This document shows, piece after piece, positions 4,862 to 62,743 of a DNA stretch of 64,000 bases. Origin of the DNA: an uncultured Gammaproteobacteria bacterium (lineage in GTDB: Bacteria > Patescibacteriota > Patescibacteriia > UBA1558 > GWA2-36-10); NCBI GenBank assembly GCA_964633905.1, contig CAZWIT010000005.1, positions 26,610 through 90,609 on the forward strand, given 5' to 3'. Positions within the stretch are counted from its first letter, which is position 1, and each line of letters begins with the position of its first letter. The position numbers and the translations under genes are program-made. Below the pieces are notes generated by a model. It was not told the DNA's origin, searched no databases, and worked only from the letters and a program-made list of their open reading frames with translations.

Positions 4862-4993
4862 CTTTGTCTATACAAAAAAATTAATTAAATAAGTGTCCCC
4901 AATATTACTATATTTAGATGATATTGTCAACCTAAACATTAACTTAAAATAAAAAGGGGCTTTATCTAGCCCCAAAATACTAATTTATCAGTA

Positions 4994-8082: not shown

Positions 8083-8140
8083 AAATAAAAAATAAACGCT
8101 ACTTTAAGCGCTCTTATTTTAACATATTTTGCCTGCTTTG

Positions 8141-8320: not shown

Positions 8321-8393
8321 AAGAAGAACAATCAAAGTATCATATACACTAACAAAAAATCTAAAATATGTCAAGATTAGCTACAAAAAACAA

Positions 8394-10327: not shown

Positions 10328-10334
10328 TTTATAT

Positions 10335-10505
10335 TTATTTTATTTTTTTCTCACCTTTGTAATAGCCACATTTAGCACAAGCTCGGTGTGGCATAATAGT
10401 TGCTCCACAATTTGAGCATTTGGTAGTGCTTTTTGGTTTTAAAGCAAAGTGTGAAGCTCGACGACGAGCTGATCCTTTTGTTCTTTTCTGTGTTTGTAAA
10501 GCCAT
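10335..10505 (-). CDS. rpmF: 50S ribosomal protein L32 (not in ORF track, 56 aa)
   Basis: Hand translation of the minus strand gives MALQTQKRTKGSARRRASHFALKPKSTTKCSNCGATIMPHRACAKCGYYKGEKKIK. The N-terminal basic block and the CxxC...CxxC zinc ribbon are typical of bL32. Confidence 0.75.
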   Translation of the reverse strand: MALQTQKRTKGSARRRASHFALKPKSTTKCSNCGATIMPHRACAKCGYYKGEKKIK

Positions 10506-10862
10506 AAATAGATATTTACGATTAAAATTATTGACCAGATTGTACCCGAAAAAAATAATATGGTCAAGAATAGTTTTTTTAGTCTTATCTGGCCTTAATT
10601 ATAACATTATATTTTATCCTTGACAATAGTAAAAAAACGTGATATTATTGTTTATCGATAAACAAAAACTAAAAAAATAGCTTATTTACAGCTAGTTCAT
10701 GAAATTTTCCCAGGCAACTGTGTCCACGACAAGCATGGGAATCATTTTTTCTGATCCTATTTGGTTCCGACTGAATATTTTCAAAAAATGGTTTTCTTGG
10801 GCACAGTTATTTGGGAAAATTAAAAAACCGCCCCTAATAAAGGCGATTTTTTTATTTAAAAA

Positions 10863-15907: not shown

Positions 15908-18409
15908 TTATTTTTTATTATTCCTTAAAAATTGCCAAGCTAAAATTATCACAATAATCAAAACAAAATATAATAAAACCCTCCTGCTTGCCAAGCGCCT
16001 ACTAAAAGATTCACTAATTACATTAGTACTAGTACTAAAATTACTATCTATTTTTTCTCCTAAAACTGTTTGTGATAATTTTAAATCTTGTGCTCTTAAA
16101 ACATTTAATTTAAATTGTTCGTCTACTAAACCTAAAACTCCACTAGCAATAATTTCCGTATCTTTTTTTAAATTTAAATCTTTAGTAGAAAAGTTCAAAC
16201 TTGCTCGTAATTTAATCTCGCCACCTTTTTCTTCTGCCAAATAAATATTGGTGCCTGACTTCTTTACTATCCAGGCATGCAAACTCAAATAAGCACCCAA
16301 ATCACTTTCTGAAAAATCACTAAGCTCTATTGTTTCTGGAGCAATCAAATCCAAACTATTACCAATTGACTGCAAGTCATTTTTATTTTTTATTTTGATT
16401 CTTAAAGGTTGATATTTATTATTTACTTGACCACTGACCCCAACTAAATCGCCAGCTAAAATTTGCGGCCAGTCTTTTTTACTATTATAAACTTCAATAA
16501 CATTTTCATAGTCTGGACTATTATCATTTAAAGGAGCAAAAAACAAACTGCGACTACTCGTGCTGCTTGGATTCAAAGCTAAACCGCTAAAACTAACCAG
16601 TTGTTTATCTTGCCAATTATCTCTAGCTATTATTATTTCCGAAACATCGGCTACTTGTAAATTAGGAGCTTGGGGACTCGGATTCTTAGTCAAAAACCAT
16701 TCTTGATTAGTTAAATCCCAAGCTTGACTCTCACCCTCTTTAGCTTGCTGATATTCAACTTTTTGCCAAACTTCACCCAAAGGAGTAATTAAACGCACAG
16801 CATCGGCCTGATTGTTTAAAGCTAATTTGCTTTCTTGTCTAGAAATTAACAAAAACTCTCCGGCAGCAATACTAGAACTGGCATTAAATAAATATGGCTT
16901 ACTGCCGCCCTCATCATCGTCTAGTTGCCAAGCACTTAAATTAATATTTTTAGCACTGGCATTATAGAGTTCAACCCATTCACCTTCATCACTACCCTCT
17001 GGATCTGGTAAAAATTCGCTAATCAATAAGTCGCCAGGCTGAAAATCAATTTTAGCAATATCTTGCAATTTTATTTCTGGGTCCAAACTCTGAATATCTA
17101 ATAAGCTGGTTGCTTCACTTGATAAGCCACTTGGATCTGTCACCCGCAGACGCAACAAGTATTTTCCCGCACTAGCATAAGTATGATTTTCCTTTTTTTC
17201 ATCAGCCGATAAGTCATCACCAAAGTCCCAAAAATATTTTAAAGCCCCTTCTTCAGGATCAGATGATTCTTCGGCTGATAAAATTATCTTCTGACCAGCT
17301 ATCAAATCTTTACTTAAAACTGAAATTTTTGCCTGCGGAGCTAGATTAGCTTCAATAATATTGGTAGCACCTGGGCTCAAACTACTAGTCCAAACAAAGT
17401 CATTGTTTAGTCTGGCATAACTTTTATTTTCTGGAGCGTTATCTAGATAAGAAATACTTTCTATTAAATTATTATTGGGATCATAAAATTTCACACTGTC
17501 TCCACCCGTATTATTTAAAGAAATGCCAGTTAAACTTTTAGCTAAAACTAAATACGCATTAGGAGCTATATTAAAATTACCTTCTTCTGGAATAGTAAAA
17601 ATCCTAGCTGAATTATCTTGTAATTTACAAGCCGCCAAATCAATACTGGTATTGCCAGAATTAAAAAGTTCAATCCACTCTCCCTCATCGCTGCCACTAG
17701 GATTAGGTAGAAATTCTGAAATTTTAACTTGGCCCCAATTATTACTAAGACCGCCTGAGCCTGGCTGAGACGGTGGATTGTCTTCATTGTTTTCTGGAGG
17801 ATCATCATCGTCGCCTGGTGGGTTATCATCAGGCGGCGTATCAGATGCTTGACTATTTATTTGACCAGGAGTGCCACCACTAATATTACTAACTTGCCAA
17901 TTTGATTGACTACTGTCTTGATTTAAAATAATTTTTTCTAAACTATTACCGTCACCAGCCGCTCCCCAAGTAGCTTCATAGCTAGCATTAATATTTTGAC
18001 TTTGCCCACCATCAAAACTAAGCGCAATTGTGCTACTACTATTTGGTAAATTCATTACCGTGTCAAAAACAGTAGCCGTAAAACCAGGGTGGTTAGTTAA
18101 AAATTGGTTAGCATCACTAGCAATAATAAAATATTCTTGGCTAGCGATGGTACTAGTGCCATTAACTAAATTTAAAAGATGATTAGCGCCATCCCAAAAA
18201 CGCCAAGTCTGCCCACCGCTGCCCGTCAATACTTCTACCACCTCTGCACCACCATTATAAACCTCAATCCACTCCTGACCGCTGTCCGAACCTTGCGCAT
18301 CGTACATAATTTCCGAAATCACCAAATCATTTGTGCTAGCTAAACTTATTTTTGGTAAAAATAAATTTAACAAAAATAAAATTAAAAATATTGTCGCTTT
18401 TCTTTTCAT
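15908..18409 (-). CDS. Large secreted surface protein with three lamin-tail-domain (LTD) repeats, a PKD-like domain and a C-terminal TM anchor
   Basis: Signal peptide MKRKATIFLILFLLNLFLPKISLA. Three LTD cores: LVISEIMYDAQGSDSGQEWIEVYN, VKISEFLPNPSGSDEGEWIELFN and LLISEFLPDPEGSDEGEWVELYN. PKD-like KYFWDFGDD...GKYLLRLRVTD. A Pro/Asp-rich linker, and a C-terminal hydrophobic segment plus basic tail. Confidence 0.65.
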   Translation of the reverse strand: MKRKATIFLILFLLNLFLPKISLASTNDLVISEIMYDAQGSDSGQEWIEVYNGGAEVVEVLTGSGGQTWRFWDGANHLLNLVNGTSTIASQEYFIIASDANQFLTNHPGFTATVFDTVMNLPNSSSTIALSFDGGQSQNINASYEATWGAAGDGNSLEKIILNQDSSQSNWQVSNISGGTPGQINSQASDTPPDDNPPGDDDDPPENNEDNPPSQPGSGGLSNNWGQVKISEFLPNPSGSDEGEWIELFNSGNTSIDLAACKLQDNSARIFTIPEEGNFNIAPNAYLVLAKSLTGISLNNTGGDSVKFYDPNNNLIESISYLDNAPENKSYARLNNDFVWTSSLSPGATNIIEANLAPQAKISVLSKDLIAGQKIILSAEESSDPEEGALKYFWDFGDDLSADEKKENHTYASAGKYLLRLRVTDPSGLSSEATSLLDIQSLDPEIKLQDIAKIDFQPGDLLISEFLPDPEGSDEGEWVELYNASAKNINLSAWQLDDDEGGSKPYLFNASSSIAAGEFLLISRQESKLALNNQADAVRLITPLGEVWQKVEYQQAKEGESQAWDLTNQEWFLTKNPSPQAPNLQVADVSEIIIARDNWQDKQLVSFSGLALNPSSTSSRSLFFAPLNDNSPDYENVIEVYNSKKDWPQILAGDLVGVSGQVNNKYQPLRIKIKNKNDLQSIGNSLDLIAPETIELSDFSESDLGAYLSLHAWIVKKSGTNIYLAEEKGGEIKLRASLNFSTKDLNLKKDTEIIASGVLGLVDEQFKLNVLRAQDLKLSQTVLGEKIDSNFSTSTNVISESFSRRLASRRVLLYFVLIIVIILAWQFLRNNKK

Positions 18410-25654: not shown

Positions 25655-26497
25655 TTAGGACGAAAAAACAGAAGTAAATTTTTGACAAGTACAGCCTCTC
25701 AAACAATCCGTTTTACTCAAATGTTGAATCGTTGCCAACAAAACCTGAGACAAGCGCACCATATTATCAGACATTACCCTCTTAACATGATCACCTTTTA
25801 AAGGATCGCCTGTTTCTGGACAAAGATTACTAACGCAAGCCAACAACCCATAGCTCATACCTGCTTCGCGCGCTAAAACTGCCTCTGGAAAACAAGTAGA
25901 CATACTCAAAAAATCAATTCCCTCTTTGCGGTATTTTTCAATTTCAGCCCTAGTTTCAAATCTAGGACCTGGCAAAGTAGATCCTAAAATTCCATTGTGT
26001 TCAATTTTGCCGTGGCTTACATTAAATACTATTTCTGCTATTTTACTACAAAACAAATCATCCATTGATCTGTGAAAATTAGCTGAGTCAACACCAACCA
26101 TATTAGCAAAAGTAAAAGGCAAAGCAGTATAATCAATTGCATCTACTGGGCAATAAATTTCGCCAGTCTGTGGAACACAAACATTAACACTATTTCTAAT
26201 AGCACCAACTGCTGAAGTGGCTAATACTACTTTTACACCCAAAATCTGAGACAAAAGATACATGTATTTTTGCTGCGCATTAGTCTTAAGCAATTGATGT
26301 GGTAAAGAAAAATCACCAAAACAATGATGCCTATCAATAAAATAAATTATGTCACTGCCAATTTCTAAGGCATAATAAAAAATGTCATCACCATAAATAT
26401 GTTCAAAACGCTTAGCTTTTTGAAGCTTACTACCGGCACCAATTAAACTAAAGAAAAATTGCTCCATACCAGTGCCACCAATTATGCCAATCTTCAT
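25655..26497 (-). CDS. Purine nucleoside / 5'-methylthioadenosine phosphorylase family protein
   Basis: N-terminus MKIGIIGGTGM and a PNP/MTAP-fold central region. The start is set at MKIG, which is preceded by AAGGAG. A Cys-rich C-terminal tail (CLRGCTCQ) is unusual. Confidence 0.7.
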   Translation of the reverse strand: MKIGIIGGTGMEQFFFSLIGAGSKLQKAKRFEHIYGDDIFYYALEIGSDIIYFIDRHHCFGDFSLPHQLLKTNAQQKYMYLLSQILGVKVVLATSAVGAIRNSVNVCVPQTGEIYCPVDAIDYTALPFTFANMVGVDSANFHRSMDDLFCSKIAEIVFNVSHGKIEHNGILGSTLPGPRFETRAEIEKYRKEGIDFLSMSTCFPEAVLAREAGMSYGLLACVSNLCPETGDPLKGDHVKRVMSDNMVRLSQVLLATIQHLSKTDCLRGCTCQKFTSVFSS

Positions 26498-26659
26498 TTT
26501 TACTCCTTGTCTGTTAAGGGACATCTTGCCGGGACAATAAAACATCCCTACCTTAAACATTTGCTAGCACTTTGTCAAACTTAAAGTTTTTATATTTAAA
26601 ATTTTTTAAATAATTTTACTAATATTAGCTAAAATAATAAATTTTACGCAGAATTAGCT

Positions 26660-28802: not shown

Positions 28803-29501
28803 TTAAGCTGTTTTTTTATTATTTTTCCCTAAGATTAAATATTGTTGAAAAACAGAGAACAGAGTAGTAAATAACCAATACATGGTAAGCCCGGCTGGTA
28901 GACTAGAGCCAATAAAAATAGTAATTACTGGCATAAAATAAAGCATTTGTTTATTCATCATAGCGCTCATACCGCCAGTACTAGCATTTTTGCCACCTAA
29001 TAGCATTTTAGATTGCCAAAACTGAGCCAAACCAGCTAGTACTGCTAGTAAAATATTTTTATTAGCTAAATCAATAAAACCAAAAGCAATAGTATTTAAT
29101 GAGCCTGGGTTAGCCACGAAAGCATATAAAGCAGACAAACTACTTTCTTTGGTCAAACCATCATAAAAAACACGATAAATAGCAAATAAGAATGGTAATT
29201 GAATTAAGGTAGGCAAACAAGAAGCAAATGGATTGATCTTTCTTTCTTTATATAAAGACATTAGCTCTGGACCCATTTTTTCTTTATTGTCCTTGTATTT
29301 TTCTTTAAGAGCTTCTATTTCTGGTTGAATTAGCTGTAATTCTTTTTGAGACTTAATGGCTGATTTAGAAAGAGGATATAATATTAAACGAATTAAAAGG
29401 GTTAATAATAATATAGCCACACCCAAATCGTGTCCTGGAACACTATTGTATAAAAAAACTAGTAAATTAAAGATTGGTTGATAAAAAATTGTATGAAACA
29501 T
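28803..29501 (-). CDS. yidC: Membrane protein insertase YidC (short Gram-positive/CPR type)
   Basis: 232 aa with five TM segments. The first helix carries the conserved arginine (LIRLILYPLS), and the C2 loop is coiled-coil. The gene is adjacent to yidD, rnpA and rpmH. Confidence 0.85.
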   Translation of the reverse strand: MFHTIFYQPIFNLLVFLYNSVPGHDLGVAILLLTLLIRLILYPLSKSAIKSQKELQLIQPEIEALKEKYKDNKEKMGPELMSLYKERKINPFASCLPTLIQLPFLFAIYRVFYDGLTKESSLSALYAFVANPGSLNTIAFGFIDLANKNILLAVLAGLAQFWQSKMLLGGKNASTGGMSAMMNKQMLYFMPVITIFIGSSLPAGLTMYWLFTTLFSVFQQYLILGKNNKKTA

Positions 29502-30432: not shown

Positions 30433-31809
30433 ATGGAAAATCGTGAAAAAATTTGGCAAAGTGTTTTGGGTCAATTAGAGCTACTAATTAGTCGCGCTAA
30501 TTTTACAACCTGGTTTAAAAATACTTTTTTAGCTGAACACAACGAACAACAAGTAATAGTAGGGGTTCCTAATTCCTTTACTAAAGTTTGGTTAGAAAAA
30601 AAATATCATGATCATATTACCAAATCTTTAGAAAATATCTTATCTATAAATAATCTACAGGTTATCTACAGGGTTGAAAATAGGGATATTGCACCTAATA
30701 TTAGCCAAAATATTGCTGAAATTAAAGAAGCAAATCAGACTCCTGTGCATAACCAAACAGTTATAAACAACAATAAAACCATTAATAAATTTGGTTTAAA
30801 TACTAGCTATAATTTTAGTAATTTTATTGTTGGGCCAGGCAATGAACTTGCTCAAGCAGCTTCTATGGCTTGTGCTCAAAAACCAGGTGAAACTTATAAT
30901 CCATTATTTATTTATGGCGGTGTGGGCCTTGGCAAAACCCACCTTGTTCAGGCTGTTGGAAACTATATTTTGGCTAAAAATCCACAAAAAAAGATACTTT
31001 ACATAAACAGTGAAAAATTTACTAATGACTTTATTTTTGCCATAAAAAGCGGCCACACTGATAAATTCAAAGAAATATATAGAAATGTTGATGTTTTATT
31101 AATAGACGATATTCAATTTATAGCCGGTAAAGAACAAACCCAGGAAGAGTTTTTCCATACTTTTAACGCTCTTCATCAAAATAACAAACAAATAGTCATC
31201 TCGTCAGACCGACCACCCAAGGCAATTGCCGGTATTGAAAACCGCTTAATTTCTCGTTTTGAATGGGGAATGATAGCTGATATTTCTTTTCCTGATTTAG
31301 AAACTAGAGTAGCAATTCTTGAAACTAAGTGCCAACAAAAAAATTATAATCTTGCTACTGAAATTATTCACCTAGTAGCTGAAAGTATCCAGGAAAATAT
31401 TCGTGAACTAGAAGGAGCTTTAAATAGAGTAATTGCTTTTCATCAGCTTAATAACACTCAACCAAGTCTAGAAAGCGTACGCGCCCTCTTAGGAGGAATT
31501 TCTGCTAATCCTAAAAAAGCTGGGCTTACTACTAAAAAATTATTAAAAACAGTAGCAGATTTTTTTGATATTTCCCTAGATGAATTGCTTGGTTCTAGTA
31601 GAAAAAAAGAATTGGTCGTACCTAGACAGATTGCCATGTTTTTGATGCGCGAACAATTAAAAAGTTCTTTTCCTAACATCGGACAAGAAATAGGGGGTAG
31701 GGATCACACTACTGCTATGCACGCTTGTTTAAAAATTTCAGACCTAATAACTAGTGATGAAAAAATGAAAAACGATCTGGCTGTTCTGCGTCAAAAACTA
31801 TATGAATAA
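30433..31809 (+). CDS. dnaA: Chromosomal replication initiator protein DnaA
   Basis: AAA+ Walker A GGVGLGKTHL, Walker B LLIDDIQF, sensor motifs, and a C-terminal DNA-binding domain with the DnaA signature. Confidence 0.95.
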   Translation: MENREKIWQSVLGQLELLISRANFTTWFKNTFLAEHNEQQVIVGVPNSFTKVWLEKKYHDHITKSLENILSINNLQVIYRVENRDIAPNISQNIAEIKEANQTPVHNQTVINNNKTINKFGLNTSYNFSNFIVGPGNELAQAASMACAQKPGETYNPLFIYGGVGLGKTHLVQAVGNYILAKNPQKKILYINSEKFTNDFIFAIKSGHTDKFKEIYRNVDVLLIDDIQFIAGKEQTQEEFFHTFNALHQNNKQIVISSDRPPKAIAGIENRLISRFEWGMIADISFPDLETRVAILETKCQQKNYNLATEIIHLVAESIQENIRELEGALNRVIAFHQLNNTQPSLESVRALLGGISANPKKAGLTTKKLLKTVADFFDISLDELLGSSRKKELVVPRQIAMFLMREQLKSSFPNIGQEIGGRDHTTAMHACLKISDLITSDEKMKNDLAVLRQKLYE

Positions 31810-32042: not shown

Positions 32043-33146
32043 ATGAAAATAATTTGCACCCAAGAAAATTTAAATAAAGGATTAAATTTAGTCTCCCACA
32101 TTGCAAATAAAAATAGTAATTTGCCAATCTTAAATAACGTATTATTTAAAGCTAATAAAGATGGTTTAACTTTAATTACCACTGATTTAGAAATTGGTAT
32201 AAAAGTATTTGTGCGTAGCAAGGTGGTAGAAGAAGGAGATTTTACCATTGATGCTAAACTATTAAATAATTATGTTAGTTTATTACCAAAAGAAAATATT
32301 GATTTAAATCTTAATGAAGGTTCTTTGGAAATAAAAAGTGCTAATCAAGAAACTAGTATAAAAGGTTTGGATGCCGAAGATTTTCCCTTAATACCAGAAA
32401 TTGAAAAGACCAACGAAGTTTTGATACCAGCTGCTGATTTAAAAAAAGCCCTAAATCAAGTTTTGTTTTCAGCCTCTTTGGATAGTTCTCGAATCGAAAT
32501 TAATGCTGTTAATTTTAATTTTTATAAAGAGAATTTAACCTTAGTCGCTACCGATAGCTATCGTTTAGCAGAAAAGAAAATAAAAATTAACAATCAGAGT
32601 AAAGAAGCAAATTTAATTATTCCTCTTAAAACACTACAAGAACTAAACAGGATTATAGCTGAACAACCTGGAGAAGATTTAAAATTATATTTTAATGAAA
32701 ATCAAATACTTTTTGTTTTTGATGGCGTGGAGCTTGTTTCTAGGGTAATAGATGGTCATTATCCTGATTACAAACAAATTATTCCCAGTAGTTTTGTGAC
32801 TAAAGTAAAATGTGATCTAAACAAGCTAATTCCAGCTATTAAGGCTGTTTCCTTGTTTTGTAAACAAGGAATTAATGATATTAAGTTGAGTTTTGAGGAA
32901 AAAAGCGGGGAAATAATAATATCAACAGCCTCTTCTTATACTGGTAATAGTATTGCCAGGATTCCAGCTGAAATAAAAGGGGAAAACAACGACATAGTCT
33001 TTAATTATCGTTATTTGTTAGATGGTTTAAATAATATTGATAGTAGCCAGGTTTATCTACAACTAAACAACAATGCTTCGCCTGGTCTTGTTCAACCAGG
33101 TGATAATCAAGAATATATATATTTAATTATGCCTATTAGACAATAG
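32043..33146 (+). CDS. dnaN: DNA polymerase III beta sliding clamp
   Basis: 367 aa with a three-domain beta-clamp layout, immediately downstream of dnaA. Confidence 0.9.
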   Translation: MKIICTQENLNKGLNLVSHIANKNSNLPILNNVLFKANKDGLTLITTDLEIGIKVFVRSKVVEEGDFTIDAKLLNNYVSLLPKENIDLNLNEGSLEIKSANQETSIKGLDAEDFPLIPEIEKTNEVLIPAADLKKALNQVLFSASLDSSRIEINAVNFNFYKENLTLVATDSYRLAEKKIKINNQSKEANLIIPLKTLQELNRIIAEQPGEDLKLYFNENQILFVFDGVELVSRVIDGHYPDYKQIIPSSFVTKVKCDLNKLIPAIKAVSLFCKQGINDIKLSFEEKSGEIIISTASSYTGNSIARIPAEIKGENNDIVFNYRYLLDGLNNIDSSQVYLQLNNNASPGLVQPGDNQEYIYLIMPIRQ

Positions 33147-51670: not shown

Positions 51671-52549
51671 ATGTTGATCTCTAAAAAGGTAAGTAAAATT
51701 CGTAAGGCAATTGTGGCTGTTGCTGGTTCCGGAACTAGGTTGTTACCAGCTACCAAAAGCATGCCTAAAGAAATGTTGCCTATAGTTGATAAACCGGTAA
51801 TTCAGTTAGTAGTAGAAGAATTAGTATCAGCTGGCATTGAAGATATTATTTTAGTAACCAAGTGGGATAAAAAACCACTAGAAGATCACTTTGATCATTC
51901 TTGGGCTTTAGAGAGTGAACTTGCTAAAGCTGGTAAAAAAGAGAAGTTAAGGGAGATTCAAAAGATCTCAGAGATGGCTAATTTTATCTATATCAGACAA
52001 AAAGGTCCTTATGGTAATGGCACACCGGTGCTTTCGGCTGCCAGCCTGGTAGATGATGAGCCGTTTATGTATGTTTGGGGAGATGATTTAGTAAAATCCA
52101 AAATACCATTTGCCAAACAAATGATTGATGAATATTATAAAACAGGTCATTTGATGATAGGTGTGCAAGAAGTAGATCGTAAACAGGTGGATAGATATGG
52201 CATTGTCAGTATTAAAGATAAAAAGACAATGCAGATTGATGACATTGTAGAAAAGCCAAGTGTCAAAACAGCCCCTTCTTGTTTAGCTGATTTTGGTAGG
52301 ATGATTTTGAATCAAGAAATTATTGATATTTTAAAAAAGACACGCTTAGGCAAAGGTAACGAACTTTGGATAGTTGATGCTATTAGGAGCTATATTAAAG
52401 CAGGGGGTAAATTTTATGCCAAAGAGATAAAAGATGGTAAGTGGCTCACTACTGGTGATTCCTTGAATTTATTAAAAACAACTCTAGAGTATGCTTGGGA
52501 TAGAAAAGAGTTGAAGGATTTTTTACAAAATTATTTAAAAAATAAATAG
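51671..52549 (+). CDS. galU: UTP--glucose-1-phosphate uridylyltransferase
   Basis: N-terminal AIVAVAGSGTRLLPATKSMPKEMLPIVDKPVIQ matches the GalU nucleotide-binding signature. Confidence 0.8.
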   Translation: MLISKKVSKIRKAIVAVAGSGTRLLPATKSMPKEMLPIVDKPVIQLVVEELVSAGIEDIILVTKWDKKPLEDHFDHSWALESELAKAGKKEKLREIQKISEMANFIYIRQKGPYGNGTPVLSAASLVDDEPFMYVWGDDLVKSKIPFAKQMIDEYYKTGHLMIGVQEVDRKQVDRYGIVSIKDKKTMQIDDIVEKPSVKTAPSCLADFGRMILNQEIIDILKKTRLGKGNELWIVDAIRSYIKAGGKFYAKEIKDGKWLTTGDSLNLLKTTLEYAWDRKELKDFLQNYLKNK

Positions 52550-52553
52550 AAAA

Positions 52554-53927
52554 ATGGCTAGGTTAAAAATTTTTACACTTGGTATTTTAGGCATCTTTAT
52601 GATGACCACTGGTTTTGGTTGTAAAGGTATCCAAGGTTGTAGTATCAAAAAGCCACCAGAAGCTCAGCCTGTTACTTTAGAATACTGGGGTGTATGGGAC
52701 AGTCCAGATCAGATAGCTCCTCTAATCGGCGCTTATCATTCTACTCATCCCACTATTAATATTAATTATCGACAATTACGCTACGAAGAATACGAGCGCA
52801 AGCTACTTGAAGCTTGGGCTGATGATAGAGGGCCAGACGTTATGGCTATACCAGTTAGTTGGTTAAATCGTTATAAGGATAGATTAACACCGCTGCCAGC
52901 AGTGATGTCGATACCAGTAAAGGAAGTTACTGGCACTATTAAAAAGGAAACAATCACTTCTTTACAGGAGATAAATGGCTTGTCGATTGGTGATATTAAA
53001 TCAAAATATGTAGACGTTGTTTATAATAACGTTATTAAAGATAATAGTATTTATGCCTTGCCTTATTCTGTCGACACCCTGATTACTTTTTATAATCTAG
53101 ATTTGTTGGAGGCAGCCGGCATTCCACAACCAATGAATAATTTTTCAGAGCTAATAGATCAGGTGCCAAAATTAACTAAAGTTAGTGCTGATAATAAAAT
53201 ATATCAAGCTGGTGTAGCTTTGGGGGGCACTGATAATATCCCGCGTTATTTTGATATTATTTCTAATCTAATGTTGCAAACTAATGTAGAAGTCAAAGGT
53301 AGCAGCTTTAATCCTAATGCTAAAGCTGAATCAGCAGCTAATTTTGTTAGAGTTTTTGGTTTTTATACTGATTTTACTAGACCAGGATTAGCTAGCTATA
53401 GCTGGGACAGTAGTATGCCTAATGCTTTGGATATGTTTATGCAAGGTAATTTAGCTTATTTTTTTGGCTATAGTTATAATGCTGATGCTATTAGGGCAAA
53501 AGGAGTTTCGTTTGACTGGGGTATTACTAAATTTCCCCAGCCAGCCGGTGCCCAAGGCGATAAATATTATTCAGATTATTGGGTTAATGTGGTACCAAAA
53601 AAATCTAAAAATGTTAATGCTGCTTGGAATTTTGTACAAACAACAGCCAGTACTGATTTAGTAAAAGTTTATTTAGATACTAATAAGAGACCAACTGCTT
53701 TGCGCGCCTTGATCAATGAACAAAAAGCCAATCAAGATTTGGCAGTTTCTGCTAACCAAGTTTTAGCAGCTGATAATTGGTACGGTGGCTATGATTATAA
53801 TTTAGCGGAACAGTATTTCAAAAATTTTATTGATGGTATTCTAGATGGACAAATAGATATGAATAATAGAGAGCACACTAATCTTTTTATAGAACGAATT
53901 AATCAGACTTACTATAAACAACAATGA
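52554..53927 (+). CDS. Extracellular solute-binding lipoprotein (ABC-type sugar-binding family 1), orphan
   Basis: Signal peptide with lipobox TTGFGC. The SBP_bac_1-like sequence TLEYWGVWDSP... follows. No cognate permease or ATPase genes are adjacent. Confidence 0.55.
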   Translation: MARLKIFTLGILGIFMMTTGFGCKGIQGCSIKKPPEAQPVTLEYWGVWDSPDQIAPLIGAYHSTHPTININYRQLRYEEYERKLLEAWADDRGPDVMAIPVSWLNRYKDRLTPLPAVMSIPVKEVTGTIKKETITSLQEINGLSIGDIKSKYVDVVYNNVIKDNSIYALPYSVDTLITFYNLDLLEAAGIPQPMNNFSELIDQVPKLTKVSADNKIYQAGVALGGTDNIPRYFDIISNLMLQTNVEVKGSSFNPNAKAESAANFVRVFGFYTDFTRPGLASYSWDSSMPNALDMFMQGNLAYFFGYSYNADAIRAKGVSFDWGITKFPQPAGAQGDKYYSDYWVNVVPKKSKNVNAAWNFVQTTASTDLVKVYLDTNKRPTALRALINEQKANQDLAVSANQVLAADNWYGGYDYNLAEQYFKNFIDGILDGQIDMNNREHTNLFIERINQTYYKQQ

Positions 53928-54541
53928 TTAGGTTTTTATTTTTATTATTAATATTGATCTGGCCAGAAACAGGTAGAGCAGCTGGATTTTTGGATAGTGT
54001 AGCTTGTATAGAGGCTGGTAATTGCGATTTACCAGATGTTGTTACTGGCTTAGTCTATTTAATTAGATTAATGCTGGGTGGCATGGGCTCGGTAGCTTTA
54101 ATCTATTTAGTAATCGGTGGTTTGCAGTGGTTAACCAGCTCCGGTAGCCCTGATAAGGTAAAGAAGGGTAAGGATATTATAATGAATACAATTTTTGCTT
54201 TAGCCTTGGCTTTCAGTAGTTATGTTGTTTTGGATCTTTTTGTTAATAAAATTTTAGCAGTTAAGCCAGAATACAGCGGTGTTAAAACCGCTCCAGTTGG
54301 GCGTTGCGGTGTTGATGTGCGAGCCGAAGGTTTAGCCTGTGAGCTTCCTACTAAAAATAAAGTTTGTTATAAGGGACAGTGTAAAATTGAGTGTGATATT
54401 CGAAAAGAAGAGTCTGGTGAAAATTGGCACTGTGCCATAATAGATCTTAATGATCCGACTAGTCCTTATTCTGAGGCAAATGGTAATTTAATAACTGGCT
54501 TGTGTCCAGATCCAATTAATAATGTCTGTATTAAAGATTAA
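53924..54541 (+). CDS. TrbC/VirB2-like pilin paralog 1 with C-terminal Cys-rich (10 Cys) extension
   Basis: Signal peptide, then a hydrophobic hairpin core LGGMGSVALIYLVIGGLQWLTSSGSPDKVKKGKDI...ALALAFSSYVVLDL shared with the five downstream paralogs. A C-terminal 80 aa carries 10 Cys. The gene overlaps the upstream gene by ATGA. Confidence 0.6.
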   Translation: MIRFLFLLLILIWPETGRAAGFLDSVACIEAGNCDLPDVVTGLVYLIRLMLGGMGSVALIYLVIGGLQWLTSSGSPDKVKKGKDIIMNTIFALALAFSSYVVLDLFVNKILAVKPEYSGVKTAPVGRCGVDVRAEGLACELPTKNKVCYKGQCKIECDIRKEESGENWHCAIIDLNDPTSPYSEANGNLITGLCPDPINNVCIKD

Positions 54542-54550
54542 TATTTATTT

Positions 54551-54904
54551 ATGAAAAAGATTTTAAAATTTTTACCAACATTTTTATTATTATTACCATC
54601 ATTAGTTTTAGCTGCTGAAGATCCTGCCCCAAATACAAATTCAACTATTCCTTTGGACAATCCTTTGGGTGCCAGTGATGTTGGCGGTTTTATAGGCAAT
54701 GCCATTAATGGCGTCCTAGGTGTAGTTGGCGCCTTATCTTTATTTTATTTTGTTTTAGGCGGCTTGACTTGGATGACATCTCAAGGTAGTCAAGAAAAAG
54801 TAAAAAGGGGTAAAGAGACCTTAATTTGGGCTACTTTTGGTTTAGCTATGATATTTTTTAGTTATGCCTTAGTTAATTTTGTCTTAAAAAAATTGGTTAG
54901 TTGA
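54551..54904 (+). CDS. TrbC/VirB2-like pilin paralog 2
   Basis: Signal peptide, then the core LGVVGALSLFYFVLGGLTWMTSQGSQEKVKRGKETL...FGLAMIFFSYALVNF. Confidence 0.6.
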   Translation: MKKILKFLPTFLLLLPSLVLAAEDPAPNTNSTIPLDNPLGASDVGGFIGNAINGVLGVVGALSLFYFVLGGLTWMTSQGSQEKVKRGKETLIWATFGLAMIFFSYALVNFVLKKLVS

Positions 54905-54913
54905 TAACTTTAC

Positions 54914-54942
54914 TTGAAAGAAATACACTTTTGTTGTATAAT
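54914..54942 (+). promoter_or_regulatory. Sigma70-like promoter upstream of pilin paralog 3
   Basis: TTGAAA (54914-54919), a 17-nt spacer, and TATAAT (54937-54942). A strong RBS AAGAAGGGGGGTG precedes the ATG at 55027. Confidence 0.45.
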
Positions 54943-55026: not shown

Positions 55027-55401
55027 ATGAAAAAATTATTAGCCTTTTTATTGTTGTTAGGACCAGCTTTAGCAGCCAGTCCAGCTTCAGCCACTGCTAC
55101 CATAAATGATTTTGGTGTCAACCAAATGAGAAATTTATCAACTTTCTCTACCAGAAGCGTTTATGATACTATTGCCGGTATTATTAACATCATTTTAGGA
55201 TTTTTAGGTACCATTGCCGTGTTGTTATTCTTATTTGGAGGTTTCAAGTGGGTAACTTCACAAGGTGAGTCTAATAAGATTGACGAAGCTAAGAAATTAA
55301 TGGGTGCTGCTGTTGTAGGTATTGCCATTATCTTTGCCTCATACGCCGTATCTCAATTTATTATTTCTCAACTTTATCAGAATACAATCCAAGGCGGTTA
55401 G
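55027..55401 (+). CDS. TrbC/VirB2-like pilin paralog 3
   Basis: Signal peptide, then FGVNQMRNLSTFSTRSVYDTI, then the core ILGFLGTIAVLLFLFGGFKWVTSQGESNKIDEAKKLMGAAVVGIAIIFASYAVSQF. Confidence 0.65.
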   Translation: MKKLLAFLLLLGPALAASPASATATINDFGVNQMRNLSTFSTRSVYDTIAGIINIILGFLGTIAVLLFLFGGFKWVTSQGESNKIDEAKKLMGAAVVGIAIIFASYAVSQFIISQLYQNTIQGG

Positions 55402-55498: not shown

Positions 55499-55858
55499 GT
55501 GAGAATAGTATTTGTTTTTGTACTATTATTAATGCCAAAGATGGTTTTGGCTACTGATATTAGCTCTTTTGGTGTGAATCAAATGAGAAATTTATCCACG
55601 TATTCTACGAGAAGTGTTTATGACACTATCTCTGGCATAGTTAACATTATTTTAGGATTTTTAGGTACCATTGCCCTGTTATTAATCTTATTTGCTGGAT
55701 TTTTATGGCTAACTTCTCAAGGGGATTCTGCTAAGATTGATCAAGCTAAAAAATTAATAGGCGCGGCAGTGGCTATGATGGTGGTTGTCTTTTCTTCTTA
55801 TGCCATAGCTCAATTTATAATTACCCAGCTTTATCAGAATACAATCCAAGGCGGGTAG
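55499..55858 (+). CDS. TrbC/VirB2-like pilin paralog 4 (GTG start)
   Basis: Same layout as paralog 3 but more divergent at the nucleotide level (core ILGFLGTIALLLILFAGFLWLTSQGDSAKIDQAKKLIG...). Confidence 0.55.
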   Translation: MRIVFVFVLLLMPKMVLATDISSFGVNQMRNLSTYSTRSVYDTISGIVNIILGFLGTIALLLILFAGFLWLTSQGDSAKIDQAKKLIGAAVAMMVVVFSSYAIAQFIITQLYQNTIQGG

Positions 55859-55921: not shown

Positions 55922-56284
55922 ATGAAAAAAGCATTAGTATTTTTTTTGTTATTAGCACCAAGTATGGCTTCAGCTACGGCTAGTCTCAATGATTTTGGTG
56001 TTAATCAAATGAGAAATCTATCTACTTTTTCTACGAGAAATGTTTATGATACTATTTCTGGTATTGTTAACATTATTTTAGGATTTTTAGGTACCATTGC
56101 CGTGTTGTTATTCTTATTTGGAGGTTTCAAGTGGGTAACTTCACAAGGTGAGTCTAATAAGATTGACGAAGCTAAGAAATTAATGGGTGCTGCTGTTGTA
56201 GGTATTGCCATTATCTTTGCCTCATACGCCGTGTCTCAATTTATTATTTCCAAGCTTTACGAGAATACAATCCAAGGTGGTTAG
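55922..56284 (+). CDS. TrbC/VirB2-like pilin paralog 5 (3' half near-identical to paralog 3)
   Basis: The core and C-terminus are nearly identical to paralog 3 at the DNA level. The N-terminal mature region is a diverged FGVNQMRNLSTFSTRNVYDTI. Confidence 0.65.
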   Translation: MKKALVFFLLLAPSMASATASLNDFGVNQMRNLSTFSTRNVYDTISGIVNIILGFLGTIAVLLFLFGGFKWVTSQGESNKIDEAKKLMGAAVVGIAIIFASYAVSQFIISKLYENTIQGG

Positions 56285-56348
56285 TATTCTTTATAATTTT
56301 GGCTTTGTTAAAATAAGTGTGGACTTTATGAATAATTATTTTATAGCT

Positions 56349-56744
56349 ATGCGTAAATATTTTATTTTAGCCTTGTTGGGCTTTTTACTATTGCCACACA
56401 TCTCATTTGCCTTGACTGATCCGATGAGCAGTTTAGAGGAGGCTGGTAGGCGGTCTGGTTTAAATACTAACTTATCAGCAACTGATATTATTGCCCGCAC
56501 TATTAATGCAATTTTAGGTTTGGTTGGCTCGGTTTTTGTGGTTTTGATTATTTGGTCTGGTTTTCGTTGGATGACTTCAGCTGGTAATACTGATCAGATT
56601 AAAAAAGCCAAAGAAACCATGATTAATTCAGTAATTGGTTTAGCTATTATTGTTGCTTCTTATGTTATTAGCTACACTATTTTAACAGTTTTAGTTGAAG
56701 GCAGGTTGCCCGGTGGTGGTGGCGGTATGGGTGGTACTCCTTAA
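56349..56744 (+). CDS. TrbC/VirB2-like pilin paralog 6 with Gly-rich C-terminal tail
   Basis: The start is placed at MRKYFILALLGFLLLPHISFA (a signal peptide); an alternative ATG lies at 56328. The core is ILGLVGSVFVVLIIWSGFRWMTSAGNTDQIKKAKETM...GLAIIVASYVISY. The tail is GGGGGMGGTP. Confidence 0.55.
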   Translation: MRKYFILALLGFLLLPHISFALTDPMSSLEEAGRRSGLNTNLSATDIIARTINAILGLVGSVFVVLIIWSGFRWMTSAGNTDQIKKAKETMINSVIGLAIIVASYVISYTILTVLVEGRLPGGGGGMGGTP

Positions 56745-56764: not shown

Positions 56765-56802
56765 CGCCCCGGTCTCACACGCGTGAGACCGGGGCTTTTG
56801 TT
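56765..56802. terminator. Strong bidirectional intrinsic terminator between the pilin array and the high-GC lipoprotein gene
   Basis: Perfect 13-bp stem GCCCCGGTCTCAC-acgc-GTGAGACCGGGGC flanked by A7 upstream and TTTTGTTT downstream. Confidence 0.65.
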
Positions 56803-56815: not shown

Positions 56816-57499
56816 CTAGCGCTGATTTGGGTAGATGAAAACATTCCAACCTAGGAGGTGTTCGACGCCGTTGTCGTCAACCCAGATCACATTGTCTGGA
56901 TTATCGTCGATAATCATATAGTAACTGCGCACGCCGCCGCTATAACCACCGTAGCAGTTTTCCAGCGGGTAGGCATAGAAGGTTACAGGGCCCGGTTGCA
57001 GTTTGCGGATCTTGGTCGACTGTCCAGGGTAGAGGATGCCGTAGTCGTTGTTACGGTCATCGGTAACATGGAAGCTACAAACTTCCTTGTTCATGATCAC
57101 ACCCAACTGCGGCACTTTGCCCCGCAAGAAGAAGTCGTCAACGTAGATTACGTCTCCAGGAAAGACTCCGGTACGAGTAAGTTCAAGTTCGTCCAGGGTC
57201 TCGTTTACGCCCTTCTTTCGCGGAAAGACGATAGTCCAACGTTCCTCTCGATCCGACCTACGGTGGAAAGTGTGGCTAGTGCCTGGCAGTATCTCGATGC
57301 GGCTTTCGTTTTCCGGCCCAACGAAAAAGGGGCCGGTACCGGTGTTTACCCAGGCCTTGTCGATAGAGACAGCCGGATCTGACCTGGGAAAGGTCAGACT
57401 GTCGCCATGCTCGTTCAGGAGCCGCGGGCCAGCGCAGGCGCTGAGGAGCGTGAGCAGTCCAAGGGCCAGCGCAAACAGCAAGTAAGTCTTGTATTTCAT
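56816..57499 (-). CDS. High-GC (about 52%) secreted lipoprotein, unknown function; compositionally foreign
   Basis: MKYKTYLLFALALGLLTLLSAC is a signal peptide with a lipobox. Codon usage is rich in CTG, GCC and CGC, unlike all neighbouring genes. Confidence 0.6.
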   Translation of the reverse strand: MKYKTYLLFALALGLLTLLSACAGPRLLNEHGDSLTFPRSDPAVSIDKAWVNTGTGPFFVGPENESRIEILPGTSHTFHRRSDREERWTIVFPRKKGVNETLDELELTRTGVFPGDVIYVDDFFLRGKVPQLGVIMNKEVCSFHVTDDRNNDYGILYPGQSTKIRKLQPGPVTFYAYPLENCYGGYSGGVRSYYMIIDDNPDNVIWVDDNGVEHLLGWNVFIYPNQR

Positions 57500-59570: not shown

Positions 59571-61151
59571 TTAAGGCTCAAGTACTTTTAGTAAAATAAA
59601 ACGTTCATTATTGATCATTGTTTGCAGATAGGGCTCATTACTAAGCCATTTTTTTTCATTAAAATCAGAAACAAAGTCACTGCTAATAAAAATATAATCA
59701 ATACTTCTTTCCCTTAGCCAAGCGCTGATATCATGAGCTTCTGCCAAGAGCCCTTCAAGCTCTTGGTTTTTTTTATCAAATTCCCAAGTTTGCATGCGGT
59801 GACCAATATAAACATTTCTAGCAGTAAAAGCCGGTATTTGAATACCATCGTTGGGGTAGCTCAAAAAAACATCACCAGGCTTTGATTCTTGTTTTATTAT
59901 TTGCCAAATATTTTTGCGCCCATTATCAAAAAACATCATGTTATTATAAGCCTCTAGATAATAGATGGGCACAATTGTTTTTAACAAAGTATCAAAAAAA
60001 ATAAAAAAAGCGATAATAGACAGGTAAATATATTTTAGCTTTGATTTTTTATTTAAATATTTTATTCCATAAAAAGCAATAATACACAAAGCAATATGCC
60101 AGCCATTGCTGAGGCGACGATTAAAATCTAGGGGCAAATAAACCAAGATAAAACCAAGCAATGACCAAAGGCAAGTTAGCAGTAGGTAGTTATTTTTTAA
60201 AATAAGCTCTTTATTTTTCTTGATATATACTAAGCCCAAGATAAAAAGTAACAAGATCAGACCATAACCAATGATATAGGATAAAAGATTTGGCGATTTT
60301 AGTATATTTTGTTGATGATGTTCAGACATTACCGGATCTTGTAATAGCCACCAGTAATAATAAGCCATAGGCAGTGATGTGAATAGCAGGATTAAATAAT
60401 AAGAAATTATTTTTTTTGACTTATTTAAATACATGATGCACAGGCTAGTAAGTCCGGCAACGCTTAATATGATTGGTATATCGTAAGGATGGATTAAACT
60501 CAAAAATAGATTGCTAATAAACAATAATATGATATAGATTGTTTTTTTACTTTCATAAGCCTTAATAAACAATGAAAATGTCAGTAATATCAGGGTTTGT
60601 GACATGATAAATAGTGGTGACTGGGTCAAAGCATCAAAGGTAATGCTCTCCGGCATCCAAATGCTAGTAGGCAGGATATTGTGTTGCTCTAAGGAGGGGT
60701 AGGCTAGGTAGGCAAAGCCATTAGAAAATAATATAAAAAGCAGGGGCCAAAATATTTTGGCACCAAATATTTTTTTTAAAAGCCAGATCAATATCAAAAT
60801 AAATATTAGGCTTGTAATTAATCTAATAATAAAATAGCTAACAATGCTCGAGTTAAACAAATTACTAAATTGCCCCATCAAATACCAGTGGGGAGCAAAT
60901 AAATCTCGGTTTTGTGCTTTGTAATTATATAGGTTATCGATAAATATTTTACCTTGGGCACCTTGTTCGATATTGGATAAATAAACAAAGTGATCGCCAC
61001 TATTAACAAAAGGTATAGATAGGTAGTTTAGACCTTTATTATAAGCAGTATAAAAACCAATAATATGATTTAAATTATTACTGATTAAAAAAGTTAAAAT
61101 TAATAAAATTAGTTTCCAATTATGCTTTAAGTAAGAACTAATACTTCTCAT
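59571..61151 (-). CDS. Polytopic membrane protein with C-terminal extracytoplasmic domain (GT-C/PMT-ArnT-like candidate)
   Basis: 526 aa. The first extracytoplasmic loop contains an acidic segment (SGDHFVYLSNIEQG). Multi-TM N-terminal half and a soluble C-terminal domain. Confidence 0.45.
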   Translation of the reverse strand: MRSISSYLKHNWKLILLILTFLISNNLNHIIGFYTAYNKGLNYLSIPFVNSGDHFVYLSNIEQGAQGKIFIDNLYNYKAQNRDLFAPHWYLMGQFSNLFNSSIVSYFIIRLITSLIFILILIWLLKKIFGAKIFWPLLFILFSNGFAYLAYPSLEQHNILPTSIWMPESITFDALTQSPLFIMSQTLILLTFSLFIKAYESKKTIYIILLFISNLFLSLIHPYDIPIILSVAGLTSLCIMYLNKSKKIISYYLILLFTSLPMAYYYWWLLQDPVMSEHHQQNILKSPNLLSYIIGYGLILLLFILGLVYIKKNKELILKNNYLLLTCLWSLLGFILVYLPLDFNRRLSNGWHIALCIIAFYGIKYLNKKSKLKYIYLSIIAFFIFFDTLLKTIVPIYYLEAYNNMMFFDNGRKNIWQIIKQESKPGDVFLSYPNDGIQIPAFTARNVYIGHRMQTWEFDKKNQELEGLLAEAHDISAWLRERSIDYIFISSDFVSDFNEKKWLSNEPYLQTMINNERFILLKVLEP

Positions 61152-62743
61152 AGTTCGATTTTATAAATATTAAAATAAGCATCTTTATATAACAAGGGTA
61201 AATTAGGATCCTGGTCCAAGGCCTGAATTAATTTTTCATGGTCTTTTTTTTCAACAAAAATATATTCAGCTCGGTAGTTATCTTTTATTTCTTTAGCTAG
61301 ATTAACCCGAATATTGCCTCTGGTAATATCACTATATTTTTGTTGCAGCTGGGGGTCATAGTTGTACATGAAAGTAAAATCTAGACCAATGATATAGCGA
61401 TTATGATCATTAAAATAAAACAACATTGGCCATTCGTCCCAATCGCTATGGAAAACAATACTATCTTTAGGGGTATTCTGTTTTAGCCAGTTACTTGCTG
61501 CTTGATAGCGTAGGCGAGGATGTTCGCTTGGTATATTAGTATTTAGTATCTGCTGATAGATGATGGGCATTAACAATGTTCCTAATACAAATAAGCTGCT
61601 CAAGAGGAATGTTTTTAGCTGCCAACTTAAGTCTTGCCAAATATCTGATATTTTTTGCCACTTAAAAATTTTTATAATATCACTAGTACCGCTAGCGACA
61701 AATAGTAATAAGAAAGGAGAATAGTATTCGGTATAGCGAATTGATTTTAAGCTTAAAAATAAAAAAGCAAAGCTTAATAAAAAACTAAACCAGCTTAAAC
61801 GGCTGATTTTTTTGATATTAAAAAATAATAAAACAAAGATTATACTAGCCATTATAAAAATTAGTAGAGAGGTGCTAGCGAGGATTGAGTGAAAACTAGC
61901 TCCGTACCATTCACCACCAACTGGAAATTGGCCGCTTTTGTTGATTAAACCGATTTGAAAAAATTGTTGGTAGTAAGCATAGGTGTTTTGAGGGAAGTAA
62001 GGATTGATGATAATTCCGCTTAGCAAACCAGCCAGTAGATATCGGGCTAATTTTTTGAGGTCAAAGTGTTCGTGGACGCTATTTAAAATAATGACAATTT
62101 TATTATGAAATAATTTTATTTTCTGGTGATGGATAAAAGCGTAGATATAATCGGCTAGATAAAATATTATAAAAATAAAAATAGCCAATGGCCAGCCGCC
62201 ATAGAGCCAGACATAGATAAATCCCAGGGCAGCTAAGGTTTTATATTTTTTTTGGAAAAAAGCATAAATAAGCAGCCAGACCATAATCAGCGACAAGCCG
62301 GTAATTTTTATTAAGGACAAGCGGAAACTTAAGGCAGGTAGGATAATCAGTAATAAACTAAAAAACCAAGGCCAGGATATTTTGAATTTTTTTAGTAGCC
62401 AATAAAAAACCAAGGCTTGAGCAGTGGCAAAAATAACAGCTGATATTTTTACACCTAAAAGAGGGTCGTTGTTAATGAGGGTAAGTGGTGCTTGGAGCAA
62501 ATGGTATAGTAAATGCTGGTCCGTAAAATTATCACGCAGGCTGCTAAATTGCATCCAGGGCATGGATTTCAAGAAATGGCCGTGAGCAAGCAAGTTAGCT
62601 AGTTTAGCATGAAAAAAACCATCTGGATCACCAATATAATCGTTCCATTGTAGCCTAGTATAGTGAGCAACTATAAATAAGCCTAATACTATATAATCAA
62701 GCTTAAGACTATTTAATATTTTTTTAGTTTTGCCGACAGTCAT
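61148..62743 (-). CDS. Polytopic membrane protein with C-terminal extracytoplasmic domain (GT-C/PMT-ArnT-like candidate)
   Basis: 531 aa. The first loop carries DYIGDPDGFFHAKL, an acidic DxD-like motif. Same layout as the upstream paralog, and the gene overlaps it by 4 nt. Confidence 0.45.
   Translation of the reverse strand: MTVGKTKKILNSLKLDYIVLGLFIVAHYTRLQWNDYIGDPDGFFHAKLANLLAHGHFLKSMPWMQFSSLRDNFTDQHLLYHLLQAPLTLINNDPLLGVKISAVIFATAQALVFYWLLKKFKISWPWFFSLLLIILPALSFRLSLIKITGLSLIMVWLLIYAFFQKKYKTLAALGFIYVWLYGGWPLAIFIFIIFYLADYIYAFIHHQKIKLFHNKIVIILNSVHEHFDLKKLARYLLAGLLSGIIINPYFPQNTYAYYQQFFQIGLINKSGQFPVGGEWYGASFHSILASTSLLIFIMASIIFVLLFFNIKKISRLSWFSFLLSFAFLFLSLKSIRYTEYYSPFLLLFVASGTSDIIKIFKWQKISDIWQDLSWQLKTFLLSSLFVLGTLLMPIIYQQILNTNIPSEHPRLRYQAASNWLKQNTPKDSIVFHSDWDEWPMLFYFNDHNRYIIGLDFTFMYNYDPQLQQKYSDITRGNIRVNLAKEIKDNYRAEYIFVEKKDHEKLIQALDQDPNLPLLYKDAYFNIYKIEL

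Follow-up and report, generated by a model that had tools for sequence, protein, structure and literature searches.

A VirB2-like pilin with a conserved cysteine-rich C-terminal domain in a Patescibacteria pilin array

The A-type pilin gene and its fused domain

We analyzed a 64,000-nucleotide stretch of DNA (contig CAZWIT010000005.1, positions 26,610 to 90,609), referred to in the following as the window, which is part of a Patescibacteria (Parcubacteria-type) chromosome with a GC content of 34.8%. The window contains an array of six tandem genes for small VirB2-like pilins, a protein family of type IV secretion systems (T4SS). The first of these genes, here called the A-type pilin gene, is the subject of this work, since its product carries a cysteine-rich domain behind the pilin core. 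The gene and the parts of its product are listed below by window position, strand and description (aa, amino acids; ORF, open reading frame).

53924-54541, + strand: A-type VirB2-like pilin gene with a C-terminal Cys-rich domain; 205 aa plus stop, a single uninterrupted ORF
53924-53983, + strand: predicted Sec-type signal peptide, residues 1-20; hydrophobic N-terminus, with a probable cleavage site before G21-F-L-D
53984-54037, + strand: predicted N-terminal extracytoplasmic segment, residues 21-38; motif GFLD..C..G.C.L.D
54038-54259, + strand: pilin core, residues 39-112; helix 1 (transmembrane segment TM1), a short Lys-rich loop TSSGSPDKVKKGKD that is predicted to be cytoplasmic, and helix 2 (TM2)
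54260-54304, + strand: flexible linker, residues 113-127; variable in sequence and length, 24% mean pairwise identity
54305-54538, + strand: Cys-rich domain, residues 128-205; 8 conserved Cys, predicted small alpha/beta fold

The A-type pilin matched the Pfam family PF18895 (T4SS_pilin) over residues 55-105 with a score of 30.2 bits, against a cut-off of 26.6. All six tandem genes matched this family, with weaker matches to TrbC/VirB2, and a comparison with NCBIfam gave only sub-threshold matches of genes 2-6 to a Mycoplasma ICE pilin-like family. Eleven core positions were common to the six window pilins (L51, G52, G55, G66, W69, T71, S72, G74, K83, S99 and Y100). When the six proteins were aligned, the C-terminus of the A-type pilin extended ≈93 aa farther than that of the second pilin (p2), whereas the tails of p3-p5 comprised only 6 aa and that of p6 ≈20 Gly-rich aa. 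An initial annotation of the window had reported that only the first pilin of the array is extended, and the alignment bears this out.

The A-type pilin has 10 Cys in total, at positions 28, 34, 128, 139, 148, 153, 157, 170, 194 and 202. Eight of these (128-202) are in the extension, and C28 and C34 are in the N-terminal segment that follows the signal peptide. The initial annotation had assigned all ten to the extension, given as 54305-54541, which runs from the Cys128 codon through the TAA stop; the string that it quoted itself shows only eight. The other five window pilins contain no Cys at all. With 4.9% Cys, the A-type pilin has the highest content in the window, compared to 0.65% over 52 window ORFs, and the binomial probability of at least 8 Cys within 82 aa is 7e-8.

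A frameshift or assembly error that merges a pilin with a separate ORF downstream could in principle produce such a protein, and Cys richness could arise by chance. We assign this explanation a practically negligible probability and have rejected it. The gene is one ORF, and the two remaining frames of the extension are full of stops. The same architecture recurs in 38 independent sequences, which stem from numerous samples and assemblies (see below), and the Cys count has the low binomial probability given above; nothing was found in favor of an artefact. The GC content at third codon positions in the extension (GC3 = 0.23) is like that of the neighboring genes. The A-type gene is thus one intact gene with a native base composition, and the fusion of a PF18895 pilin with a Cys-rich domain, as initially proposed, is real.

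The Kyte–Doolittle profile, the sequence and the AlphaFold2 model agree that the signal peptide is followed by two hydrophobic helices with a short, positively charged loop (SGSPDKVKKGKD) between them; in the model, the core helices comprise residues 36-71 and 76-110. The A|GFLD junction at the predicted cleavage site is conserved across the family alignments. By the positive-inside rule, the Lys-rich inter-helix loop (KVKKGK) is expected on the cytoplasmic side. Because of the hydrophobicity profile, this loop, the AlphaFold2 helices and the signal peptide, both Cys-bearing ends, the N-terminal segment and the C-terminal domain, are most probably outside the cell. VirB2/TraA pilins likewise have both termini on the outer face of the membrane.

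Conservation and predicted fold of the cysteine-rich domain

A database search with the whole protein yielded 10 relatives of 194-249 aa with 41-96% identity, all of which had the extension, and the last profile search enlarged the set to 39 sequences (38 relatives, 30-96% identity). The relatives carry PF18895 or score just under its cut-off. The Cys pattern, which the initial annotation had proposed to look for in other Patescibacteria pilins, was present in the 38 relatives, with all 10 Cys kept in 38 of the 39 sequences and the N-terminal C28/C34 pair (C-x5-C) invariant in 39/39. In the domain, the spacing over the 39 sequences was C-x8-10-C-x5-13-C-x4-16-C-x3-C-x12-26-C-x13-29-C-x5-11-C. 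The mean pairwise identity was 55% for the core, 33% for the domain and 24% for the linker, and without the Cys columns the value for the domain dropped to 24% as well. Apart from the Cys, only N145, Y146, V147, W168 and P195 were conserved in at least 70% of the sequences. Invariant Cys combined with variable loops would be the signature of a disulfide scaffold on which the loops are free to diverge.

Several relatives have additional Cys in the mature part of the protein, in even numbers only (2, 2, 2, 2, 4, 10, 12, 12, 12, 14 and 14). That the extra Cys always come in even numbers points to disulfides. The hydrophobicity and charge pattern together with this even-number rule supports an extracellular, disulfide-bonded domain, and we consider the domain most probably extracytoplasmic and disulfide-bonded, with fast-evolving loops.

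The conserved Cys could instead be ligands for a metal, such as zinc or an Fe-S type cluster, in which case the domain would serve in metal binding or redox chemistry. In favor of this, the eight Cys are invariant and include a CxxxC; the record titles of several relatives indicate anoxic habitats, where extracellular disulfides are less favored; and the window showed no Dsb or VKOR gene. The predicted extracytoplasmic location and the occurrence of the extra Cys strictly in pairs argue against metal binding, as do the lack of any conserved His or Asp alongside the Cys, N145, Y146, V147, W168 and P195 being the only such residues, and the finding that no zinc-finger or Fe-S Pfam family recurs across the members. 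We regard a metal-binding module as very unlikely.

When a profile of the extension alone was searched with HMMER against 1.84 billion representative proteins, 18 clusters were found at E ≤ 1e-3. In 17 of them, the proteins were 200-317 aa long and the match was at residues ≈100-230, behind the pilin core, with the domain placed at ≈120-215; the remaining cluster was an 83-aa protein. A word-index search with the domain-only alignment returned no matches in spite of the known members and was not counted as evidence; the exhaustive HMMER search is the valid test. Judged from these matches, and with the 83-aa protein aside, the 8-Cys domain is found only fused to the A-type pilin. There was no tblastn match in plasmid and phage collections, and sequenced mobile elements are not known to carry the family. 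Its members are named "hypothetical" in public records, and the relatives come from metagenome-assembled genomes named Candidatus Parcubacteria and Candidatus Falkowbacteria. Two records with closely related loci, L004 (CAZHLU010000066.1) and L005 (CAYRIU010000055.1), are titled "uncultured Gammaproteobacteria bacterium", probably due to a mislabelled or contaminated bin.

An AlphaFold2 model of the full-length protein, made with an 11-sequence alignment, had a predicted local distance difference test (pLDDT) score of 71.9. The linker was disordered, with pLDDT <50 at residues 113-122, and the C-terminal domain was better defined. A model of the domain only (residues 123-205, 22-sequence alignment) reached a pLDDT of 87.6 and a predicted TM-score (pTM) of 0.74; in it, a beta-hairpin is followed by a helix of nine residues that begins at the CxxxC and then by three more strands. 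The 8-Cys domain is thus confidently predicted to fold autonomously as a small alpha/beta domain, which answers the initial suggestion that the structure of the extension be predicted.

Neither sequence nor structure comparisons linked the domain to a known family. No Pfam family recurred in the extension among the 22 members scanned, and no Pfam model covered it in the window protein. A profile search of PDB sequences with the domain gave no match, and Foldseek searches with the domain-only model found nothing significant in the PDB (best E = 5.1, TM 0.24) or among the viral models of BFVD. With the full-length model, Foldseek returned only helical-hairpin noise, the best relevant match being the Aeropyrum pernix conjugation pilus 8dfu (E = 2.8). 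On these grounds, the 8-Cys domain is a new family without a Pfam or PDB counterpart.

The initial annotation had likened the extension to knottin, defensin and EGF-like domains. These share with it a compact, Cys-dominated fold with variable loops. Hallmarks of the small disulfide-rich domains are a C-x-C in EGF, a CxxxC paired with a CxC in the CS-alpha/beta defensins, and a length of 30-40 aa in knottins. As a group, these domains have 30-45 aa and 6 Cys, whereas the domain described here has ≈80 aa and 8 Cys, with no CxC and no EGF spacing. The resemblance fails on spacing, on Pfam (no recurrent family in the 22 members) and on Foldseek, and we have rejected this identity.

The C-terminal end of the A-type pilin appears to be extensible. 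In six relatives, the domain is followed by another Cys-rich tail, which is 107-153 aa long and adds 10-14 Cys. Locus L009 (GCA_964638415.1, Parcubacteria-type) has two tandem A genes at 10001-12039, encoding proteins of 358 and 317 aa, both of which have the 8-Cys domain plus an extra Cys-rich tail of ≈110-150 aa with 10-12 more Cys. In the Falkowbacteria loci L007 and L008, the gene at the A position has kept the N-terminal Cys motif, and its tail is short and different (CPCKS..C....C......C). The L007 array has 8 or more pilin genes, and the Cys-tail pilin genes of the two loci are at 7908-8372 and 10564-11124 in L007 and at 4400-4870 and 4893-5417 in L008. Other Falkowbacteria pilins have unrelated Cys-rich tails of their own, for example CYCCSYRNQGELECCSQSCCATGCGC. 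No Pfam match was found in the extra tails of the longer relatives or in the Falkowbacteria Cys tails. Cys-rich tails on PF18895 pilins thus seem to recur across Patescibacteria classes. Of the Cys in the Falkowbacteria A-position pilins, 3 are N-terminal and 5 are C-terminal; the even total would be expected if both ends share one oxidizing side, and the 3+5 split suggests a disulfide that links the two outer ends.

We also considered whether the domain might be a cleavable C-terminal pro-domain. Cutting of the linker would then release a soluble, disulfide-rich peptide (a signal, a toxin or a bacteriocin-like molecule), and what remained would be a short mature pilin. In favor of this, a semi-conserved VK..Y motif comes immediately behind TM2 in a linker that is both disordered and variable; the domain is predicted by AlphaFold2 to fold autonomously; and C-terminal processing has a precedent in the TrbC/VirB2 pilins. 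Against this, C128 is not flanked by a conserved cleavage motif, the locus has no dedicated peptidase gene, and the domain was not met as a separate gene, being behind a pilin core in 17/18 clusters with a single 83-aa protein besides. Moreover, a joint function of both ends on the intact protein is suggested by the 3+5 Cys split in Falkowbacteria and by the N-terminal Cys pair, which is invariant. A pro-domain is distinctly unlikely.

The pilin array and its surroundings

The other genes and features of the array and its immediate flanks are given in the same format.

52554-53927, + strand: solute-binding protein (SBP)-like lipoprotein gene, 457 aa; its stop overlaps the start of the A-type pilin gene (ATGA)
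54551-54904, + strand: B-type pilin gene, 117 aa, no Cys; PF18895 E = 3.6e-9; orthologous to the second gene of the L001, L005 and L006 arrays
55027-55401, 55499-55858 and 55922-56284, + strand: three C-type pilin genes, no Cys; 65-94% identical to each other
56328-56744, + strand: D-type pilin gene, 138 aa, no Cys; Gly-rich tail GRLPGGGGGMGGTP; PF18895 E = 1.7e-11; orthologous to the last pilin of related arrays
56766-56795, no strand assigned: bidirectional terminator-like hairpin closing the pilin operon; 13-bp stem with 10 GC pairs
56816-57499, - strand: convergent lipoprotein gene, 227 aa; no Pfam family

Reciprocal BLAST resolved the pilins into four orthologous types in the fixed order A (with Cys), B, C and D. 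By this comparison, the arrays are ordered sets of distinct orthologues, not interchangeable paralogues, and the gene that the initial annotation had called paralog 1 is better described as the A type of the A-B-C-D set. The order galU, SBP-like lipoprotein, Cys-pilin and short pilins was shared by seven Parcubacteria-type loci (the window, L001, L005, L006, L009, L010 and L011), and the SBP-like lipoprotein gene was immediately upstream of the A-type pilin gene in every locus with context. Some homologues of this lipoprotein have a precomputed match to PF01547 (SBP_bac_1); the window copy had no Pfam match at E ≤ 1. The convergent lipoprotein gene followed the array in all seven loci except L010, where the contig ends inside the array. 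The window protein has 25% identity to its L006 counterpart (E = 8e-9), and a gene of similar size is found there in the related loci. In five of the seven loci, a DUF2079 gene came directly after the convergent lipoprotein gene; in L011, three genes intervene.

The C type is triplicated in the window, compared to a single C gene in related genomes, which suggests a recent local amplification of what is probably the bulk subunit. The site at 54914-54942, before the first C gene, is promoter-like, with 11/12 consensus matches, although such a match is not proof of a promoter. The first C gene also has the only strong Shine–Dalgarno sequence of the array (aaggggggtga). Triplication, its own promoter-like site and a strong Shine–Dalgarno sequence are as expected of a bulk subunit. 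The A-type gene has no Shine–Dalgarno sequence, and its translation is apparently coupled to that of the lipoprotein gene. The D-type ORF was listed from a TTG at 56205, overlapping the previous gene; the ATG at 56328 or that at 56349 is a likelier start.

Farther upstream in the window are rpoB, rpoC, ftsK, an HTH_25 gene, recA, genes for a Wzx-like flippase and a Wzy_C protein, and galU (51671-52549). The dnaA gene is at 30433-31809 (+), which puts the pilin array ≈23 kb from the likely origin. A YidC-family gene at 28803-29501 (-) and dnaA on the opposite strand suggest a replication origin region, and an ORF of 367 aa (32043-33146, +) comes after dnaA. No virB4 was found near dnaA in the window, whereas this is a common location in many Paceibacteria (PMC12102498). 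In the related loci, VirB4, VirB6, VirB3 and VirD4 were not found within ≈10 kb of the array.

Two overlapping ORFs at 59571-61151 and 61148-62743 (-), of ≈525-530 aa, have hydrophobic stretches that are suggestive of membrane proteins. They had no Pfam match and no detectable similarity to each other, and the possibility that they encode VirB4-like ATPases was rejected for lack of a Pfam match. A 525-aa counterpart, also without a Pfam match, is at the corresponding position in L001. Elsewhere in the window, the 832-aa product of a gene at 15908-18409 (-) has one PKD and three Lamin-tail domains and is probably a large surface protein. A protein of the PNP_UDP_1 phosphorylase superfamily (25655-26560, -) ranks second in the window for Cys content, with 11 Cys in its 301 aa, and its gene adjoins those for a CsoR-like metal-sensing repressor, a thioredoxin and a thioredoxin reductase.

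This setting bears on whether the A-type protein is a pilus subunit at all. It could be a membrane-anchored surface protein in which the pilin-like hairpin only anchors the Cys-rich domain, and the domain would then work with the co-translated SBP-like lipoprotein or with the envelope-glycan machinery, as a receptor, as a scaffold or in ligand capture. In all loci examined, the stop of the lipoprotein gene and the A start overlap; the flanking genes are those for Wzx, Wzy, GalU, DUF2079 and glycosyltransferases, not virB4 or virB6; and no pilus of a Patescibacteria T4SS has been observed (PMC12857230). However, the A core has kept residues found array-wide, including G66, W69, T71, S72, G74, S99 and Y100, and A always travels with B, C and D, which suggests co-assembly. 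Distance from virB4 is weak evidence, since a pilin gene is near virB4 in only 1135 of 1948 Patescibacteria assemblies (PMC12102498). We consider an anchored surface protein unlikely.

Proposed role and comparison with known systems

The explanation that we favor is that the A-type protein is a low-copy, specialized pilin that displays a disulfide-stabilized domain with variable loops as a binding module. After Sec export and cleavage of the signal peptide before GFLD, the two-helix hairpin would be inserted in the membrane with its Lys-rich loop inside, so that the C-terminal domain and the CX5C segment at the N-terminus would both be extracellular. There, the 8 Cys of the domain would form four disulfides that stabilize a compact alpha/beta fold, and the N-terminal pair would form a fifth. 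The A-type pilin would either co-assemble with the B, C and D pilins or stay in the membrane, with its domain projecting outward on the flexible linker. It would be a specialized minor, tip or base subunit present in few copies, not the bulk subunit, and its domain would bind, most plausibly, a host or partner cell or else another component of the envelope. Taken as a whole, this is the best explanation of the results, and we put the chance that it is right at about even. As to its parts, with modest support the A-type pilin may be a low-copy subunit with a binding module, either displayed on a pilus that consists largely of C-type pilins, where it could do what VirB5 does in other systems, or retained on the membrane. 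The domain might act as an adhesin or at a pilus tip, and the host-interaction and toxin-like roles raised in the initial annotation are likewise conjectural.

Several observations weigh against this explanation. A scan of ORFs of at least 100 aa in the 64-kb window revealed no VirB4, VirB6, VirB3 or VirD4, and the locus is among envelope-glycan genes (Wzx, Wzy, GalU and DUF2079) instead of T4SS genes. A pilus has yet to be seen for any Patescibacteria T4SS (PMC12857230). The minor-subunit status draws solely on gene organization and on consensus-type matches to promoter and Shine–Dalgarno sequences, and the A-type domain has no known binding partner. One relative, P0020, lacks C128 and so has an odd number of Cys. 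For a derivation of the disulfide pairing from covariation, 39 sequences are too few, and the window genes include no disulfide-forming enzyme, only a cytoplasmic thioredoxin and a thioredoxin reductase.

In a bolder version of the proposal, the A-type pilin would be the host-recognition subunit of a T4SS-like pilus in Patescibacteria, a minor or tip pilin derived from VirB2 that replaces the missing VirB5. The hypervariable loops on the four-disulfide scaffold, in some lineages together with stacked Cys modules or tandem copies, would set the host range, and the Falkowbacteria Cys tails would be independent versions of the same display strategy. We offer this version tentatively and think it somewhat unlikely.

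Few envelope systems have been shown to be indispensable to a cultivated Patescibacterium in its epibiotic life; VirB2-like arrays are one of them, and the A-type domain is a concrete candidate for the part that touches the host cell, a substrate or another envelope protein. As an autonomous domain of ≈9 kDa, it can be expressed, crystallized, and used as a bait or as an antibody target. If the domain is only a structural decoration, the result is a modest improvement in annotation.

Among known systems, the closest are the VirB2-like pilin arrays of Patescibacteria themselves, of which 441, with 2-11 genes each, have been described (Quinonero-Coronel et al. 2025, PMC12102498). In Ca. Southlakia epibionticum ML1, the predicted pilins in the T4SS gene cluster (SEML1_0006-0019) are essential (PMC10633639). 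Like the array in the window, the Patescibacteria PF18895/PF04956 arrays consist of 2-11 divergent, small two-helix pilins in tandem, on a monoderm chromosome and of the same Pfam family. The published arrays (PMC10633639, PMC12102498) come with no mention of a fused C-terminal Cys-rich domain or of a fixed A-B-C-D order, and a recent review (PMC12857230) does not mention such a fusion either. The S. epibionticum array is inside a T4SS cluster, whereas that described here is between the SBP-like and the convergent lipoprotein genes, with no T4SS gene within 64 kb. In the literature on Cys-rich or extended VirB2 pilins in Patescibacteria, no prior description was found; the pilin array itself is known, and the A-B-C-D organization and the fused domain family have not been described before.

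The VirB5/TraC minor pilin, the tip adhesin of Gram-negative T4SS, is a possible functional analogue, as a low-copy component with a binding surface. According to the same review, monoderm systems otherwise lack VirB2 and VirB5 (PMC12857230), and the absence of VirB5 from monoderm and Patescibacteria systems (PMC12857230) leaves a tip role open. VirB5 is a soluble helical protein, whereas the A-type pilin combines a VirB2 hairpin with an alpha/beta domain, and a tip location is here pure conjecture. No Pfam, NCBIfam or Foldseek match to the VirB5/TraC family or fold was found for the A-type pilin.

Type IV pilins, of the type IV pilus (T4P) and the type II secretion system (T2SS), with their minor-pilin tip complexes, also have a variable, exposed C-terminal region that is stabilized by a disulfide (the D-region), and several non-redundant pilin types occur together in them. 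They belong to another superfamily and have a single N-terminal helix, in contrast to the two-helix membrane hairpin of the A-type pilin. Their class III signal peptide consists of a short basic leader and a G|F/M junction, with Glu at +5 and a hydrophobic N-terminal helix. The A-type pilin has a 20-aa hydrophobic leader, then the polar sequence LDSVACIEAGNCD after G21-F; it has no class III signal peptide and no match to the T4P Pfam families, and its identity as a T4P pilin was rejected.

The propilins of RP4 TrbC and of Ti-plasmid VirB2 undergo C-terminal processing and head-to-tail cyclization. They share with the A-type pilin a VirB2-family core, precursor residues beyond helix 2, and both termini outside. 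Cyclization of the A-type pilin would be implausible unless its domain were cut off. The extensions of TrbC and VirB2 are short, unstructured and removed, whereas that of the A-type pilin is a conserved 8-Cys domain of ≈80 aa that is predicted to be folded.

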